Assembly (NCBI RefSeq): GCF_038025025.1
Contig: NW_027117345.1
Location: forward strand, 806,001-870,000
Reading direction: 5' to 3'
DNA length: 64,000 nucleotides
DNA from: Phyllosticta citribraziliensis
Lineage: Eukaryota
Shown: in pieces, positions 51,511-62,873 of the stretch
Layout of the letters: each line of letters begins with the position of its first letter
Position numbering within the stretch: position 1 is the stretch's first letter
Translations under genes and position numbers: made by a program
The notes under the pieces: model-generated
Seen by the model: only the letters and a program-made list of their open reading frames with translations
Told to the model about the DNA's origin: nothing
The model's database searches: none

Positions 51511-54424
51511 CTAGGCCCCACGCCACGGACTGCCACCCCTCTTCCTCGTCATCGGATCTCTCGTATCCCGGGGCTCCTCCAGGCTTCTCCTTCCACCCTG
51601 AACTCCAAGCTCGCTCATGGTAAAGAGCAGTGGCTCGTCGTCATCCACGTTGGCCGCAGCAGAAACAGGCCGAGAAGAGAAGCTGTATCGGCTTCCACCT
51701 CTGCTATTCCGCCCGCTTGCAATGCCGCTATCGCTTTCTCCACGCTCAGAAGCCACGCTGCGACGGCCACTTTCGGTGGATGTGTTGACGCGTGTGCGGT
51801 AGGCAAGGCTTGGAGTGGCCGAGTGGGCGCCGGAACGAGTGGAGGATGTGCCTTGGGTGGAACGAGGTCGCTCACGGAGGACGAGGGGGTCTATGATAGC
51901 TCCAGGAGAGGGGTCAGTCTCAGGCGCGTACTTTTCGACGGATTCGCCTTCAGCCCCCGACGATGATTCCTGCGTGCCCTTGTGTAATAACTCGCTGAGG
52001 CTCAAGTCTGGGCGATCGTCTGTGGGAAGAGAGGCACTTCGCATACCAAAGAGCTCCGTATCGTCCTCGAGTTGATTCCGGTGCTGCTGCGCGGCAGACG
52101 AACTCCTCCTCGCAAAGGGCCAAGCACGCGGGGAGGTTGGGATTGCCATGCCAGGGCGCTCGTCTTGAGCCGTAGAATCGCTGCCATTGTCGCCAGTGTC
52201 CTCCACGTCGTGGCGGGCGCGCGGGTTGCGGCTACGATGTGGCTGCTCATCGTAGTCAATGATGCTGTTAGCACTCAACCGTGACGGTACAGCAGGGGTA
52301 TGAGGTGTGTGCGGCGAGATTGGTTTGCCAGGCGAGGAAGAAGTGGATACAGAGGCACCGCCCACCATGCCCGGTACGTTTGCAAGGTTGCGGCTGGACG
52401 AGCTGGAAGATCGATGGAGAAGAAGGGAGGAGGATATGGAGTCAGAAAGCGCAGCATTAGATTCACGCATGCGCTGATACTTGGACAGCGCGGCCGTTGT
52501 GCGTCTCATGGACGCATCACGGGATGCCGAGTCTGTGCGGTTCAAGCTCTTGAGTTCCTTTTTCTGCTCAAGAAGCTTGAGGAAGTCTGAAATATTCTCC
52601 TCGTCCGTCTGCACTGAGCCGGAGCTGCCTCCTTCCAGACGCTGGGCGGAGGACGAGGCGCTACCCTTGCCGCTGCTGTTATTGTCATCTTCCGTCTTGC
52701 TTCCACCAGCACCAGAGGAAAACCTCGACCGCCGGTTACTGAAGCTACTGCTATAACGGGAAATGGGCGCAGGTTTTGGAGAGCTCGAAGTCGACGACGC
52801 GATTGCAGTTTCGTTGGGCAAGGAGTGGCCAGAAGGTGTGCGGAGAGCTGCTTGGGGCAGAGCGTTCAGAGAACTCCTATTGCGAGTATGTCCGGCACCC
52901 TGGCCTGTGCCAGTTGCTCTTCCCAGAGATGTCCCAGGAGAAGGTGGAACAACTGGTGATGAGGACAGCGATCCAGCTTTGAAGGGATTTGCAGGCTGGA
53001 AAGACACTGACGTGCGTCGTGGCGAGGCTGGGCTTGCGGCAATATCACGGAGCGACGACTTGGAACTTGTTGCTGTTCGATGATTTGGTGGTATCTTTTG
53101 AGGCGGCGACTCAGGAGAGCCCATATCCTTGGCGGCGCGCAGGGCTGAAATAGGACTGGTTCCAGTCGCCGGGCCGACCTGGTGAAACGTGGACAAGCTC
53201 CCATATGCCTGGCCACGATCCGGTTGTTCCTGATAAAAGTTTCTTCCGGTGGGCAATGATCCCGGGACGCGGCCAGTTTCACGATCGTGAAACGAAGAAG
53301 AGAAGTTGAGGTCGTCCATACCCATGAAGTGGGAGCTGAGTACCGACTCTTGCTTCTCGACGCGGAAGTCAGTATTGTTGCGATATTGCACGGATATGCT
53401 CAGAAGCCCAACGGGAGACTTTGTCGGCTCAAAAGCATGCGTCTGTGCCACCTGTTCGGATGCTGGATAGAGGGGCAGGTCCAGAGTGTCTCGGCGGGGG
53501 CTCTTGAACATGCCGTTTGAGATGCGCCATCTCAGCGGCAAAGAGGGCTGGGCCATTGGATTCCTTGCAACATGTTTGTAGTACTTCCACGCAGGTACTA
53601 GTCGCGTAAAGGTACACAAGGAACGGAAGAGAGCGATAGCGTTTTTGTAGACATTTGGCAGTGTCGCTCTGACCGTCTCGGGATCCATTTTTTGGTTGTC
53701 CGTGACCTCGACTGTCCAGCGCTCCAGAATGACCTGGGTGGGCCTGCCAGAACGACTGGATGGCCGCGAGGTCAGAGGAGTCGCCGTCGTCAGAGCCTCA
53801 GCTACGTCCCACAACTTCCCGTGCTCGTCCACGATGGCAAGAGCCTCCCCATCCGCCAGATCCTTCAAATCGAGGAATATCTCGATGCACAGCGGAGGCG
53901 GAGCCGTATTGACTAGATCGGATGTTGTCCATTCCCGGAGGTCTTCGTTGTAGACGTCGGTCTCGTCAAGCACAAGACTAAACTGTAGCCACAGTTAGCG
54001 TCCCAGTCGCAAATGACTAGGCCTGTGACATACCCATTTGCTCTGCCGAACTTGGCCCTGTTTATTGGCAACTTGTGGAAGTTGGGTCCTCGACTCCAAA
54101 ATCGTGAGGGCTGCCTTTTTGTAGAATTGCTGCACCAGATTAGCACGCTTGGTCGGCGATGGAGCTACAAAGACAAACCATAATCACTTGTCCAAGCTTC
54201 CTCATGGTGGCATCTTCCTCTAGACCAGGATCGGCGGTATCGTCCCCCCTCTCGATATAATCCGAGCCGGCATCGCTGCGGGCAGTCTGGTATGACGTGA
54301 CGGTCGAAGCAGACTCGGAGCGGTAGTGGGCGGCATCTCTTGGGTTGTTGGAGCGGGTAGGGTTTGTGCGAGGCGAGATGGCGGCCGAGGCTCCCCTCGG
54401 GGAAGGCCGGGGATGCTGATGCAT
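51511..54424 (-). CDS. ATG13: Autophagy protein Atg13 (HORMA domain + disordered tail)
   Basis: MHQHPRPSP start, KLGQVIM|QFYKKAAL, KW|FSLVLDETD, VILERW, VYKNAIALFRSL, VQYRNNTDFRV, ISDFLKLLE, DDEPLLFTMSE. Confidence 0.9.
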
Positions 54425-55211
54425 TGTTCGGATGCGGGAGTTGTGTCGTATGGTTGGATATGGGGGTGCGATGCAAACCAAAGGGGGCTTGTAGCGCGTG
54501 TTACGGTTGATGTGTGGTGTAGACTTCTTTATATGAAGCCATTACGGGAAGAGGATGCGCAGGCGGATTGTGTGTCGAGCACGCGTCGGCGGTGGGGAAT
54601 CGCAGGCGGCAGTGACGAACAATTCAGGCTGCCATGATCAGCGGTGGTGGTTGAGGACCGTGGACGTTGTGATTGCCTCAGGTATCAACGAGAGTCGATG
54701 GAGACGTCAAGGTGCGGAGGAGTCGAAGGGCGGATGTCGGGGGAGAGCAGGGTCGACAAAAGGCAGTGGGCGAGCCAGCCTAGGACGTAGAAGCGACGGG
54801 TCGAGGGAGTACGGTAGGTGCAGAGCAGGGCGGCGGTGGTTGAGGTCGGGTCGGGTCAAAGCGACGACTGGTCCTCCATGTGACTGGTACGAGTGACGGG
54901 CGATGACTGTGATAGCGATAGTGGTAGGTAGGGCGGTGGAGCTCGGGCGGCGCGGAGCAGGAGGATGGCGCGAGTACGTAGATGGGTCGGTAGTGAGAGA
55001 GGGTCAAAAGGGGAGTGGAGTGAGAGGGAGGAGAGGGAGAGAAAGAGAGCGGTGGCAGTATGGATGGATGGATGGATGGATGGATGGAGTTGAGATTGGC
55101 GGCGGGATGGGGTTGGCTACAGTACAGGTAGATGGACATGGACTGGGGGAGCTTCCCATTGGGTTGGGCGATCCTGGAACACCACCACCGCAGTCCACCT
55201 CCCGCCCGGCC

Positions 55212-55592
55212 ATGGTCCCGCCCACACCCACCCCACACCATTCACTCGACCATCGACCAACTCGTCACCATCACGACCCTTTTTCGACTCTCTGCTGTAC
55301 AGCGAGTACATTCCATCTCTCTGCTCGCTCTCGACTTGACCTAGACTTTCCCTTTCCCTCTCCCTCTCCCTCTTCCTCTCCTCAGGATGCGCCGAGAAAG
55401 ATCCGACATGTATCCTCCCTTCCTCCCTACCCACCGCAACGACCGGTCAGCCGCCGCGCCCGCGTGCTGTCGTCAAAAGCACAGCCATTCCAGTCAGTCA
55501 GTCAGTCAGTCTGATCAATGTCGACATTGACTCCCTCTTCCACTTTTCGTCGCCATCCGATCCGCCTCGCCCACCCGCCGCCGCCTGTCTGG

Positions 55593-55633
<41 letters not shown>

Positions 55634-56774
55634 TGCCCAGTTCCTGCATCTCACCACTCACCACCACACCACTAACTACATGTACATGATGACCCAGCGC
55701 CTCAACACACGCAGTGCGCGCCCGGGGCGGCCAATCGCGCCCTTATCTGCGTCGTGCTCACTCCTCAGGCTGTGCGACAAAGGGTCTCTTCGGACTCGAC
55801 GCGCGCCTCCGCACTCGGCCATCCAATCCCTTCCTCACCTACGCTTCTAGGCAGGTAGGTAGCTATGTAGCTACATGTACATGGCTGCAGCACTCACAGT
55901 CATACCCCGTGCAGCTCGCCCGCATCCTCGACCCGACCAATCAACTAACCGCCCGCCGCTCGCCTCCAAACAGGCAGAAAAAGAAATCAAGTCTTTGTTT
56001 CTTGACATCATAAACATTGCGCGCCTGTCTGCTCTGTATGTACATGTAGTCATCAGGCTGCCCGTCCGGTAGTCGGTCGTCTGTTATCGCACAAGCACTG
56101 CAGTCGTCGAGGGGGCACAAGATGACGTTAGGTCCACTCGGCGCCTGTCGCGCCCTCCCCGTCCTCTGCTCTGACCTTGCATCCATTCATTCAGCCTGAC
56201 AAAATTCCCGCCCACCTACCTTTCACGTGGTGCGTTGAACATGGCAAAAGCACGCAGCAATCCCATGGCTTTTTTCTGTTCCTCTCCCTTGGCTGTCACG
56301 CCCCTGGAATGCAAAGCGACTCAGCGAGCAGCAGGAGCAGCCGACTCATCATCATCACCACCACGACGGATCGTGGATCCTTGCCCGCCCCCCGCCCCGT
56401 CACGACTCACGAATCACGTCCCGAGGGCCGCTGGCGTCATGGCGTCGTCCCGTCACGAACGAACGCCCTCACGTGCTCACTTACTCAGGAGGGAGGGCCG
56501 GCCGCCGGGCGCGCCTCACGTCAGTCAGTCAGTGCAGTCGGAGGTCAGTCGCCCGGTAGGTCGACGACGCCGGTCTGCCCTTTTCGTTCGGCATTCTTCC
56601 TTTGCATCACGCAAATACATACATACATTCCACAGTCAATCAAAAGAGCTGGCCGGTCGGCCGGCTGGCCTTGAAGCACCGCCCGAACGCACGCACGCAC
56701 GCACGCGACCAGCTGAGCCAACCGCCGCGTGTGGACGAACCCTAAACTGTCGACCACGCCGCCGCTGCACTTAG
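55212..56774 (+). CDS. Putative unannotated multi-exon gene with micro-exons (hypothetical protein, or spliced lncRNA)
   Basis: Exons 55212-55305, 55386-55409, 55698-55713, 55851-55854, 55974-56035 and 56195 onward join into one open frame from an ATG in GCCATGG context. Introns 4 and 5 have canonical donor, branch and acceptor; intron 2 has a perfect branch but a weak GTATCC donor. 3' end uncertain. Confidence 0.5.
55493..55632. repeat. (GTCA)n and (GCTT)n tetranucleotide microsatellites
   Basis: gtcagtcagtcagtcagt at 55493-55510; gcttgcttgctt.. at ~55594-55632. Confidence 0.85.
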
Positions 56775-57307
56775 TCAGTCAGGGTCTCAGGTCTCAGGTC
56801 CCGGGTCGCTTGGGACCACCACACGTCATCGAGTGTTTGGCTCAATGACAATCTAGATAGGAGTCCCGACGTGCCTCGATAGGCAGGTAGGTACCGCAGT
56901 TCGAGAGGGTCCTCGGCCAAATATCCGAATCATCGCAGGGATTCGTCCGATCGATGCATAGTCGCGGGTGTTTGCTACTCCAGGTACAGTACTAGGGGGG
57001 AATCTATTCACCACCTCAGGTGCACCTATGGAGAATCTCCTAGTAACGTTTAACCATAGTCAAGATTTAGATACAATGCATTTATTCATTCAATTGCGAC
57101 TGCTATGACTATTTCATAAAGGAAAACATGCAACGACGCCCAGAAGCAGGAAAAAGCAAAAGGGAAGAAAAAGAAATCACTCCGTACGCCCATCTATCCA
57201 TGAATAAACAAACAAAAAATACCCAAACAACCACCAAGCGCGCCCCACAACATCCTTCACTAACCTAACCCACCGTCGTGAGGTACCCACCACTCACCGC
57301 AGCACGC

Positions 57308-60300
57308 TCAGCTCAACTTCTCCAAAACCTCGGTGCCCCTCAACGCGGCGGCCACGTGCCACGGCACCGCGCCGCCCCGCGTGCCCTTCATGCCGCGCAG
57401 CTTGGCCAGCAGCCCCAGGTTGCGGTACATGATGAGGAACTCGCGCAGCACCGTGTCGTACGTCGTGCGCGCCGCCTGGTTTGCAAACGGGTTGACGCCG
57501 CCGACGCCGACGCCCTGGCCTTGTGCTGCTGCGCCCGTCGCGGATCCAGCGCCATTGTTGTTGTTTGTGCTGCCAGTGCTGCTGCTGCTGCTGCTACCGT
57601 TGCTGTTGGTGTTGGTGCTTGCGGTGGGAGTGTTGCCGTTGCCACCACCGCCGGGGGACGCCAGCGGGCTGTTTGGGCTCTGCCCCGCGACGCTGCTGTC
57701 CATGGGCGCGAGGTTGGCGCCTAGGCCGGAGTTCTGGCGCTGTTGATGGGAGCCCGCCGTGCTGCCGATCCAGATGAGGTTGACGCTCACGGCGATGGGG
57801 CCCCGCGGCGTGTCGGAGTCGGCGAGGCCGCCACCGTTGCCAGTGCTGCTGGCTGCCGCTGCCGCTGCTTCGGCGTCGGCACCGCGCTTGACCAAGTAGC
57901 CGCTTGCGAGCGCGGGCCGGAACTCGACTGTCGAGTTGGAGTTGTGGAGGCGGTGCTGGAGTATGACGCCCCAAGACTCGTCCGTCACGTCGACCAGCCG
58001 CGCCTCGGGGTCGGCTGAAGGGTCCGCGGCTGCCGTGCTTTCTGAAGGCGTGACTGCGGGCGTGAAGCCGTGTTGATCGGGGGAGACGCCTGGCTGTGGT
58101 GTTCCTGGCGTTGAGACCCCTACGCTGTTGGATGATTGATTTTGAGCAGTCGTCAATCCGGGCAGGGGCGTGGTGATGGTGAAGACGGGATTGGGTTCCA
58201 CTGAAATCAAGGCCGCTCCAATGAAAAGAGGACTGGGAATCGCCAGAAGCGACTGCCATGCTGCTTAATGTCAGAAAAGAAACGTCAAAGATTCCCAACA
58301 AACTCACTTTCGACCTCTTCTCGCTCCATGACTCCCGCTCTGGCGATGCAGAGACGCCAAGTCACTCTTCTGGCCTGCATGATTTCAAGCGAAGTTTGGT
58401 AAATCTCCCGAGCCACCTCAATAAACGACCGATTGACCAAACAGTACGAGACGGTCGTCTGGTGCTTTCCTGCATTGTCCGTCCAAGCAGCTGTTATCCA
58501 CGAACCGTCAAAACTGATGGAGTACCCGACGTGGATGTAAGAATTCTCCTGCAACAGATTGGAAGGCGGATCCACCGTGAGGCGAAATGGGATATTTCGG
58601 GGGAGCGTCTCCTCGAGCTGTATGGAAGGGGCCGTACGAATGCTCAAGGCGGTTGGGTCGTCGCTCAAACTTTTTGGAGGGCAACGATCATATACCTCTC
58701 GCGCCATTTTGGTGAGGAGGGCAGGCTCAAGGATGATTGGCGCTTCAAACGATGCAATGTACTTGATCGGGACGAGTTGAAGAACTACATCTGGTTTCGA
58801 GTTTTCAGTGGTAGCAATGGAGACTGGTGGTCCATATGCCTGAAAGAGGGCCCAGAACGCGGAACAGAGTTGCCAAGTGTGCTGCGGATTTGAAAAAGGA
58901 TTGACCAGGTAAATGACGATCGCATCAGCTTGTGCGCCGTCTTCAGCCTTGACAAAATGCTTGTAGTTGATACGGGACAAGACCCTTCCGAGCGTAGCAC
59001 AAGCATCTCGCATTGCTTGGATGCAACTGTGGGCCGTTATTCTCCAGGCGTCGCCATCGACATTGCTGATTGTTGCTGGAACCAGCCCATCGCCTTCTGA
59101 GTTGTCAAGTGCCGGACCCCTAATATGACTTCCGAACTTGGCGGCTTCATAAGACATGCTAATACTGTCAAGGAAGCCTGACACAGCGTCGTTCAAGTCT
59201 GGGTTGGCCGGGTAAACGGAGTAGGCAACAATATTCTTCGGACCGCTGGCTGGTGCCAGACCAAGGGGCTCCCAGAAAGACAAAGCTGGAGGAAGGACAT
59301 CCCACAAATCATCGCCACGATTTAGGCGTATGTGAGGCGTAGATATAGAAAAGAACAAGTTGCCTGCGAAATTAGCTTCATGCGAATGGTGCACAACCCG
59401 AGAGTAACGTACCATGAGGATCCGACTGATTTCGTCTTTGGATCGGTCTCGGTTGGGTTTTGGCACTCGAGACCGGGTGCTCAGGCATCACGTCCTGAAT
59501 TGTGGCGTACTTGACCATATCACAATCGTTCGCCTCTTGGAAAGTTTCTTGCACAACGTTCTGGACAGTCTGCACCGGAAGGAGGTCTGGCGATGGGGGC
59601 AACGCATAATTCAGGGGAAGGGAGTGGCTGTGGTTGAAATTTTGTATTATGTCTGCCTTTGATCAGCATTGCAATTTCTGGCACCAAACTGGCCAAGTCT
59701 TACCCAAGCTTGAGAAAATGACCTGGTCGACAAGAATTTGTGTGATGGCAATGATTTCTTTCACACTTAGGGGTTGCATGATGGGCATTGTCTCCGAGCC
59801 GACATCAGAAGCAGGCGTGGACGCCGCCGACGTCAGCGAGAACGAACCCCGACGAGATCTATTTTCTGTCGACGCGCGACCTCTAAACTTGACCTGTGGG
59901 ATCGGGAGAGCTGCAAGCGACCAATCGTATGGGCCAGGCTCGAATAACGAAAGCGGAGGAATTTCATTCTGAACAAGAGCTATCAGTACAAATGTCGGGG
60001 GACCTGAGGCTACGTGGTTACAATCACGTGTAGTGACAAAGAGCCAAAGGAAGCCCTGCGAAAGATCTCGTTGCAAAAGGCAAGGGAGGAACTTGATTGA
60101 GGTTTTTGACTTACCGGAACTCCATCAATATCCCCCAAGGCAAATTCTTGTGAGTTGTTGTCGAGAGAGATCCCCCCAGGTGTGCTAGCTATTGGAGTGC
60201 CTGCAATGGAGGGCTGCCACGTTTTCTGACCAAGACTGAGAATCGCAGTGAGCCTAGTTGGAGCAACAGATATCTGTTCTCCCTCGAGTGATACTGAGCT

Positions 60301-62873
60301 GGCTGAGCTGTCACTGGTAGCATCGCTGTCGTTGTACCCGCGAGTATCCACCGTGGAACCACCCTTGAAGTTATTTGGAGCCATGATGTTTTGGATGAGA
60401 TCAGAGACGCCCGCTTGAGTCTTTGTCATCGTAGTTGCTGAGAGTTCACGGGACGGAAGGACTATAGACCTGCCCTTTGGTGCACGCCCGCCTACATCTT
60501 TGGCATCTCTGGGTGGAGGAGCAAAGTTGAATCGTCCGTCGGCTGCGTACTTGGAATCTGCAGCTGCCACTTGTCGACCAAAGTCAACAGCATCGAACAG
60601 GCTTTTCCGGCGGGATCCTTTTGGGTCTTCTACTTCTCCGACCTGGTGGTCGTCGCCTCCAGTCTCTGGGACGAAGAGTCTCTGATTGATCGCAGAAGGA
60701 CTCAGTGGGGGACTAGGTTCGCGGGGAGTCTTAACATGAGACGCAGGTTCGTCCTCTCCTTGCAGTCCGGATCCATATTTCAAGTCTGCGGGTTTGGATT
60801 CTGTTTGACCTGCACGCTCCAACATGTGGACGCCCGATTCTGCTGCGCCAACGGTGGTGACAAGCTCACCGCCCGCAGAATATCCTTCTCCGTCGTTCAT
60901 GTGGGATCCAGCGAGCTGCAAGTTCGGCGAGATGCCAAGATTGCCATCCACAGGCGAAGAGACCTGCTTCGGAGGATCGTCGAACACGGGCGGCCCTGAC
61001 ATGTCCATAAGGTCAAAATCGGCAGCATCCGGATCATCGAAAAAGTTGAAATCGGCTTCGGTGACATCGTTTGCTCCAAACATTTCCTCGTCAATGTCGC
61101 CAAATAGATCATCGCCGTTGCTTGACCTCGAGGCGTGACCCGCCGCTGAGGCATGGACGCTCTGCGACGGTTCATGACGCTCGCTCGAAGTGCCTCCGGT
61201 AGCAATACCAGATTCATTCAATAGCATTGTATCTTGGCCGTTGCCTTGTCCTTGTGTTGAGTCGCTGGTTTGTCCGGTGATCACTCCATCCATGGGTGTT
61301 GGTCCCGAGGTGTTTGGTGCAAGAACGCCGTCCGGAGGAGTAGGATATACGCCGCTGATGGCTTGCAAATCTCCATAAGCCGAGCCGCGGGAATAAAGTG
61401 GAGAGGATGGGTAGGTCGTCACTGGTTCGGGTGCCACGTGGGTGCTTTCCTCTTGTGACATGCGAGCCTTTCTTCGCGAGTCGAGGGCCTTCTCGCGTTC
61501 CGATCTGCCCAGAAACCAGTCGTGAGCTTGCCAAAGGGGATCTTTGAACCCATCTCTATCGCCATTGGCCCACCACCTAATGGCTTTCTCGGTTGACTGA
61601 GCGTCACTCTCAGATTCATCGGGTTGATGTCCCTGGCGATTGTCATCTGCAGCATCCAACATATGAGCGAAGCAGAGAAAGGAGGGCCAGAGGCATTCCT
61701 GATATCCTCCGTTGGGCAGGTCGCGATTGTCCTTCGAGGTTGATGGATAGGAAATCTGAACCTGAATACGGGCCCATTTGTTTTCCCCATCCATATTCAC
61801 CAGGGCAATCCCTTTTCTGCGTAGCCATCGCTCGACGTCCACCTTCCACTGCTCGATTGATCTTGCCCGTTTTGAGTACAATAAGCTGGCTGTCTCGCCT
61901 TCGCCTCCAGCAGCTTCAGTGCCAACATATCTGGCAAGGAGTCCACTCGGGGCGACGCGGACAATCTTGCCTACCTGGTCATCTGCTAAATCCCGTGACT
62001 TCAAGGTCGGCTCAAGCTGATAGAGAACGGACCGATCTGACACGGATGTAGAAATTACTAGGGTTCCAGACGTTGAAAGGTGAACATCCAAGGTCAAGAT
62101 GTAAAACTTGTTGCGGCTTTGCAGATTCGGGCCGTCATCATCATTAGTTTGACTTTGCGTCAGTCGTGGGCATGAAATAAAGGTGCGGTAATTCAGGGGT
62201 ATCATCTTCTGAGAAATGGACAACTGGTACGAAATGGATGCTATGACAGCGGCGATGAGCGCCTCGTATATCGCAAGCGGATCATGCTGCTTGCCGGGCT
62301 CAGATGAAGTCGTCGACGCGAAATTGGGTTGGCTGTTTTGCTGAAAAGCTCTGGCGTTCGCCGCACGTGCATTGGATGTGTTTGGACCTGATCCAGCTCC
62401 AGAATGGGCGGAGAAGCCAGGAGTTCGCCCGGCGAATTTGGCCAATTCGGAAGCTTTCAATGTTGCTTCGGTGACATCTGATGACGGTGAGAATCTGGCA
62501 GGCGATGTGGGACGGACCATGGACATACGCTGTAGATGAGGCACGTGGCCCTGTTGATCTCTTTGTAGAGAGTCTTGATCAAATACCGGAGGAGTTGCTC
62601 CAGGTTCAAACAGCCACAGGAGGAGCCGATCTCTGTCTACAAAGACGAGATGTTTCGAGTTGCGCAAGATGGCCTCGACGGTACTCAGTTCTTCGATTTG
62701 CGTGTTGCGGCTGCCGGATCCCTCAAGGCTGGACTTGGCGGCCAAAGTACGGTAAGAAATGGCGCTGTAGCCACCCTAGAGATACTTAGAATGGAACTGA
62801 TGGCAGAACAGGAGAGGCAGATCATTCTTACAACGGCAGAGACGCTGGTGTTACTGGACTTGAGGGAATCCAT
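57308..62873 (-). CDS. SSN2: Mediator kinase-module subunit Med13, multi-exon
   Basis: MDSLKSSNT start, VYPTPPDG, DVTEADFNFFDDPD, LPPALSFWEPLGLAPASGPKNI, SYEAAKFGSH, HVGYSISFDGSWITAAWTDNAG, YRNLGLLA..VPWHVAA. Confidence 0.92.

Follow-up and report, generated by a model that had tools for sequence, protein, structure and literature searches.

A spliced RNA, probably non-coding, in the interval between ATG13 and MED13 of Phyllosticta citribraziliensis

The locus

The window, that is, the whole stretch of 64,000 nucleotides of P. citribraziliensis analysed here, is DNA of fungal type, in which ATG13 and MED13 are confirmed by Pfam as the genes that flank the interval under study, both on the minus strand (Table 1), with BUD22 located past ATG13. 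Could the apparently empty interval of about 2.8-2.9 kb, from the start codon of ATG13 to the stop of MED13, contain a gene of its own? A first-pass annotation had proposed that a protein-coding gene of six exons, some of them extremely small, is hidden there on the plus strand, and had named a spliced lncRNA, divergent from ATG13, as the alternative. Here, we compare both proposals with assembled RNA contigs, with the level expected by chance and with searches for relatives.

The RNA contig of ATG13 extends at least 590 nt ahead of the start codon, which is a long leader for an autophagy regulator, and upstream ATGs are present in it. Three of them (54879, 54635 and 54542) were found in the 625-nt leader stretch 55049-54425 of the minus strand. 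The interval itself is dense in tetranucleotide microsatellites, namely (ATGG)7, (CAGT)5, (TGCT)10, (GTCA)5 and (ACGC)5, several of which break RNA assemblies or draw unrelated contigs.

Table 1. Features of the ATG13-MED13 interval and its flanks, in window coordinates
Feature	Position	Strand	Basis and remarks
ATG13	large exon 51514-53982; start codon 54424-54422	-	Pfam PF10033, E 3.5e-56
ATG13 5' untranslated leader	54425-55016	-	X1 record 1, ATG13 mRNA contig, both CT..AC introns removed
Interval microsatellites	55017-55094, 55491-55511, 55593-55633, 56520-56539, 56687-56706		repeat search
RNA contig, X1 record 2	55245-55582	not shown	338 letters in genome order, free of gaps and other letters; word depth 1093.7
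Proposed introns of the micro-exon chain	55306-55385, 55410-55697, 55714-55850, 55855-55973, 56036-56194	+	first-pass annotation; GT..AG ends confirmed in the sequence
(TGCT)10 microsatellite	55593-55633		RNA assembly broken here between two contigs; 55583-55639 listed as skipped repeat
Exon 1, 3' part	55640-55854	+	X1 record 4 colinear over 55640-55850; joint placeable up to 4 nt rightward
Sole intron seen in RNA	55855-55914	+	60 nt; donor GTAGGT; acceptor CAG, preceded at about 19 nt by CTCAC
Exon 2	55915-57225	+	colinear through proposed exon 5 and intron 5; predicted 3' end about 20 nt after AATAAA at 57203
MED13 putative 3' UTR	57081-57310	-	down to the minus-strand AATAAA (TTTATT on plus, 57081-57086), 220 nt past the stop
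MED13	Med13_N, MID_MedPIWI and Med13_C over 57311-62775; stop 57308-57310	-	Pfam

RNA contigs over the interval

The contigs of run X1 come from the same organism as the window: each of the 8 listed pieces has 0 other letters. Three CT..AC introns (GT..AG on the minus strand) are missing from them, two in ATG13 (53983-54033 and 54130-54178) and one in MED13 (58261-58307), and X1 is taken as RNA on the sole basis of these missing introns of the flanking genes. The ATG13 mRNA (record 1) follows the genome up to 55016 and has 33 more letters into a GGAT/ATGG repeat (to about 55049), by which it is cut, so that its end is not a natural one.

Two other contigs cover 55245-55582 and 55640-57300 inside the interval, that is, 338 nt and about 1.6 kb, both above 200 nt. 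The shorter one (record 2) lies wholly within the interval and is unspliced over proposed intron 1 and for 172 nt beyond the proposed donor of intron 2. Its word depth is 1093.7, compared with 2709.2 for the ATG13 contig, although depth is a poor measure of abundance. The longer one (record 4) follows the genome over 55640-55850, passes a joint, continues colinear over 55911-58260 and then enters the spliced MED13 mRNA. Its first part shows no splice over the proposed acceptor of intron 2, exon 3, intron 3 or the 4-nt exon.

The joint from 55850 to 55911 was found in one contig, with a side of 211, and skips 60 nt, which read as GT..AG when the cut is moved by 4 nt. Wherever among the 5 possible positions the cut is placed, no minus-strand GT..AG (CT..AC) results. 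The joint is thus canonical only as 55855-55914 on the plus strand, and the transcript is therefore assigned to that strand. The donor of the intron is of the GTNNGT form, CTNAC lies close to the acceptor, and the length is near the 47-51 nt of the three introns in the neighbouring genes. In accordance with the first-pass annotation, the interval is consequently not empty, and a spliced plus-strand RNA is present in the X1 contigs.

The contigs are unstranded, and this single intron is the only evidence of strand; starts, ends and levels of transcripts are invisible to contigs. Since the contigs carry no strand, part of the cover of the interval could be minus-strand RNA. Between about 55050 and 55244, a stretch that includes the proposed ATG at 55212, there is no X1 contig, and this hole indicates neither a start site nor absent expression. 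Likewise, the contig over proposed exon 1 begins at 55245, past that ATG, which is no evidence that RNA is absent there.

The proposed micro-exon chain

The sequence elements of the chain are as proposed. A script check confirmed that each of the five introns, at its coordinates in Table 1, has GT as its first letters and CAG or TAG as its last, that the exons measure 94, 24, 16, 4 and 62 nt, and that the ATG at 55212 lies within GCCATGG. The joined frame stays open and yields the peptide that had been described, but it extends past the last residue of that peptide to a stop at 56772-56774, and has 260 codons in total.

How often would such a frame arise by chance? An exhaustive search was made for chains with no more than five introns (GT..YAG, 50-300 nt), with exons of at least 4 nt and codons that may be split at junctions, and an ATG was counted if some chain from it kept at least 79 codons open. 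The real stretch had 16 such ATGs among 17, its reverse complement 25 among 36, and ten dinucleotide-preserving shuffles together 119 among 166 (72%), with at least eight in each shuffle. The length of the proposed frame is therefore at the chance level (16/17 real against 119/166 shuffled ATGs), and the open chain has no statistical weight, because shuffled sequences give equivalent chains when the same freedom is allowed. In GC-rich fungal intergenic DNA, frame-open chains of GT..AG micro-exons are to be expected by chance, and therefore evidence of the junctions is needed before genes are called from them.

The proposed introns also differ in form from the four confirmed introns of the window, which are 47-60 nt long and have GTNNGT donors, with CTNAC at a distance of 10-20 nt from the acceptor. 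Those of the chain are 80-288 nt long, and only two of their five donors have the GTNNGT shape (GTAGGT and GTATGT), while GTACAT, GTATCC and GTGCGC deviate. The joined model has a codon score of +0.03 per codon, compared with -0.07 to +0.31 for real genes of the window, on a 64-kb training set that is weak.

Compared with the X1 contigs, introns 1, 3 and 5 are retained, and the RNA continues unspliced across the donor and across the acceptor of intron 2. Not one of the five introns is removed as proposed, one of the five donors (55855) and none of the five acceptors is used. The one partial success is intron 4, whose GTAGGT donor was correctly placed but whose acceptor was put at 55973, while the RNA uses 55914. 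The hidden six-exon protein-coding gene is accordingly not supported, since its junctions differ from those in the RNA contigs and its open frame is at the level of chance.

Coding potential of the transcript

For the coding tests we used a model of the transcript that runs from 55245 or earlier to 55854, joined to 55915 through about 57225, in which the two contigs are bridged across (TGCT)10. No ATG-started ORF of at least 25 codons spans the real junction in this model. The three frames through the junction are open for 53, 86 and 70 codons, with no ATG in any of them, and the segment that had been read as an amphipathic helix sits in the 53-codon frame, a stop-to-stop frame. The longest ATG-started ORFs have 177, 121 and 110 codons, to which one of 135 codons is added provided that transcription begins upstream of 55107. 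The longest ORFs of the interval are rich in Arg, Pro, Ser and Ala and run through the (TGCT)n, (GTCA)n and (ACGC)n microsatellites.

Searches for domains and relatives were made with the unspliced ORFs that hold the frames of the first and last proposed exons. None of 9 ORFs of the interval reached a Pfam gathering score; weak matches to DUF4131 (E 0.16), ARL17 (E 0.017) and DotA (E 0.049) are far under the curated cut-offs and were put down to chance. In the protein libraries, the 135-aa ORF matched only a singleton of 203 aa, which is the window's own unspliced ORF 54903-55514. Apart from a match to itself, the 177-aa ORF, compared with 1.84 billion representatives, gave only two hits, at 25-27% identity; both are tandem-repeat proteins (543 and 485 aa) and were judged to be unrelated. 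In these libraries the ORFs of the interval thus have no relatives other than the window's own mechanical ORF calls and those two repetitive proteins.

The codon-usage score, for which 17 long ORFs of the window served as the training set, ranges from -0.07 to +0.31 per codon for real genes and from -0.07 to +0.09 for ORFs of the interval, and it poorly separates even ATG13 and MED13 from the background. Because the two ranges overlap, the score decides nothing; the three plus-strand frames score alike, with no preferred frame, on this weak measure. From its composition, its ORF structure and the lack of relatives, the transcript most likely encodes no protein.

Known structured RNAs were searched for as well. 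No Rfam family reached its gathering score in the interval, the best match being SNOR75 with 21.5 bits against a cut-off of 50, and the matches below threshold (SNOR75, Chloroflexus-1, RMST_5 and TCL6_1, E up to 10) were read as chance. ARAGORN found no tRNA. None of 36 overlapping windows of 150 nt had an unusual fold (z from -1.55 to +2.32, mean +0.25). A snoRNA host gene or another known structured RNA was consequently rejected, with no family at threshold, no tRNA and no folding window below z -1.55.

Interpretation

The reading that we favour, and think probable, is that the interval gives rise to a spliced, lineage-restricted, non-coding RNA, which is divergent from ATG13 and convergent with MED13 and is likely a passenger of a bidirectional promoter. 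This corresponds to the alternative offered in the first-pass annotation, and it agrees with the one plus-strand intron and the negative coding tests. The transcript would be of polymerase II type, roughly 1.9 kb long, with the single 60-nt intron, and the two contigs would belong to one RNA that is split in the assembly only at (TGCT)10. Transcription would start near the ATG13 promoter and head away from ATG13, and the RNA would end near the AATAAA at 57203 of the plus strand, the only poly(A) hint, so that its tail would overlap that of the convergent MED13 mRNA. With the plus-strand signal at 57203 and the minus-strand one at 57081-57086, the two RNAs would share about 150 nt at their 3' ends. 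We infer that the interval RNA and MED13 were fused in one contig because an unstranded assembler met this convergent 3' overlap.

The region of the ATG13 promoter most likely fires both ways, with the plus-strand product spliced and polyadenylated as a passenger. The end of the ATG13 contig (about 55049) and that of record 2 (55245) are about 200 nt apart, although contig ends are not start sites. Near 55100-55250 the GC skew reverses, from a C-rich minus strand on the left to a C-rich plus strand on the right, a pattern that would fit two transcripts leaving one promoter region but is only suggestive. An ATTGG (CCAAT on the minus strand) occurs at 55158-55163, inside the gap of about 200 nt between the two contig ends, and is a possible shared promoter element. 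If the RNA has an effect, this would probably be in cis and would come from transcription as such at the shared promoter, or from the overlap with the 3' end of MED13, and not from the product. A more active role, in which the RNA is a functional cis-regulator by which the activity of the ATG13 promoter tunes termination or stability of the MED13 mRNA, or the reverse, or, in a weaker variant, encodes a micropeptide in the 47-codon first ORF, has a slim chance of being correct. If the former were true, autophagy induction would be coupled to the composition of Mediator (kinase module) in a species-specific manner.

Could the contigs be explained in another way? It is rather unlikely that the cover comes mostly from minus-strand RNA, by read-through or a long 3' UTR of MED13, by a start of ATG13 further upstream, or by both, so that spliced plus-strand RNA is minor or local, at about 55800-55960. 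Such an origin would suit the continuity of record 4 with the whole MED13 mRNA in contigs that are strandless, record 2 (55245-55582) has no intron by which to orient it, and the ATG13 contig, which is cut by the repeat at 55017, has no end of its own there. However, the contig of the dominant form lacks the plus-strand intron, and mainly minus-strand RNA would have retained those 60 nt. The plus strand of 55250-56700 is moreover C-rich, as a mirror of the minus strand of the ATG13 leader, and MED13 has a minus-strand AATAAA 220 nt past its stop.

Two further possibilities concern coding. It appears distinctly unlikely that the RNA serves as an mRNA, from which an unspliced ORF of 47 codons (55387), 110 codons (55518) or 177 codons (56241) would be translated into a small protein or micropeptide peculiar to the species. 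ATG-started ORFs are present in the RNA-supported model, and the transcript is spliced and apparently abundant, as far as a depth of 1093.7 against 2709.2 for ATG13 can indicate abundance, of which it is a poor measure. However, the only relatives found for these ORFs are the ORF calls of the window itself, they have no Pfam family, they cross the tetranucleotide repeats with no plus-strand frame preferred, and several upstream ATGs stand ahead of the 110- and 177-codon ORFs. Hardly credible, finally, is the micro-exon gene as a rare isoform that contig assembly has dropped. Contigs show presence and not absence, and they lose rare variants; the donor at 55855 is real, and proposed intron 5 has good signals (GTATGT..CTGAC..CAG). 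Against this, the contigs remove none of the five proposed introns, three of the five donors are off the local GTNNGT pattern, a 4-nt exon is required, and equivalent open chains start from 72% of shuffled ATGs.

Comparison with known systems

How does the non-coding RNA that we favour compare with known classes? Non-coding host genes of snoRNAs have many short exons. It is only the proposed chain, with its many introns and tiny non-coding exons, that resembles them; unlike these hosts, the RNA of the ATG13-MED13 interval uses one intron, whose 60 nt are too short for a snoRNA, and no snoRNA family reached threshold.

In yeast, the divergent non-coding products of bidirectional promoters are grouped as CUTs, SUTs and XUTs, which are mostly short and unstable. 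The interval RNA is like them in being head-to-head with a coding gene (ATG13), with RNA contig ends about 200 nt apart, and unlike them in being long, spliced and assembled at a depth like that of its neighbours; what is seen of it at the ATG13 side is a contig end and not a start site. XUTs are also mentioned in the introduction of a study on Fusarium graminearum (PMC6094484).

That study tabulates 2,574 novel non-coding transcripts, of which 1,054 are intergenic (PMC6094484); lncRNAs of the intergenic and the antisense kind are common in a sordariomycete. The RNA described here resembles the lincRNAs of F. graminearum: it is intergenic, polymerase-II-like, longer than 200 nt, has few exons and no credible ORF, and is without relatives outside its lineage. 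It differs in that it is known from contigs and sequence alone, and not from developmental regulation, sensitivity to decay pathways or a phenotype (PMC6094484). In fission yeast, nc-tgp1 is a lncRNA that lies upstream of and in tandem with its target, and whose transcription is reported to interfere in cis with this neighbouring gene (PMC4255232). The interval RNA shares with it a possible cis mode, since it would leave the ATG13 promoter and enter the terminator region of MED13. In contrast to nc-tgp1, it is divergent and convergent instead of tandem, and an effect on its neighbours is only a candidate one. Among the top literature matches, judged by title and abstract, no fungal lncRNA adjoining ATG13 is reported.

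The interval is a transcription unit that had previously been unmarked, for which the annotation should give a non-coding gene instead of a hypothetical protein; beyond annotation, this is of little import. If the RNA were to act in cis on ATG13 or MED13, it would be a modest addition to the biology of fungal lncRNAs.

Relatives of the locus

A metagenome scan with the HORMA part of ATG13 returned six loci (L001-L006) at 38-57% identity. In none of the six is MED13 adjacent to ATG13 within the flanks, which for five of them extend as far as about 10 kb in either direction; this would say only that the ATG13-MED13 arrangement is not ancient. Comparison of 54400-57320 with the six loci by tblastx and blastn gave short low-complexity matches only (best E 3e-5, over 61 codons), and the loci are too distant to speak on the interval.

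Relatives are also represented by RNA contigs of runs X3, X5 and X6, which carry ATG13 and/or MED13 at about 90-96% likeness. In the interval they offer only repeat-sized bits of 18-34 nt, which are no gauge of conservation. The 47-nt MED13 intron 58261-58307 of the minus strand is spliced out in the X1 and X3 contigs, and those of X5 and X6, both plant-metagenome RNA runs, are colinear through it, which may reflect intron retention, low-depth pre-mRNA or DNA in the libraries.

The C-terminal part of MED13 contains a low-complexity region rich in Gly, Ala, Gln and Asn (57400-57760, minus strand). The alignment of the relatives' contigs to MED13 ends between 57533 and 57630. In the low-complexity region, organism B differs from the window by in-frame indels, with 3 nt absent at 57645 and 6 nt added behind 57745.
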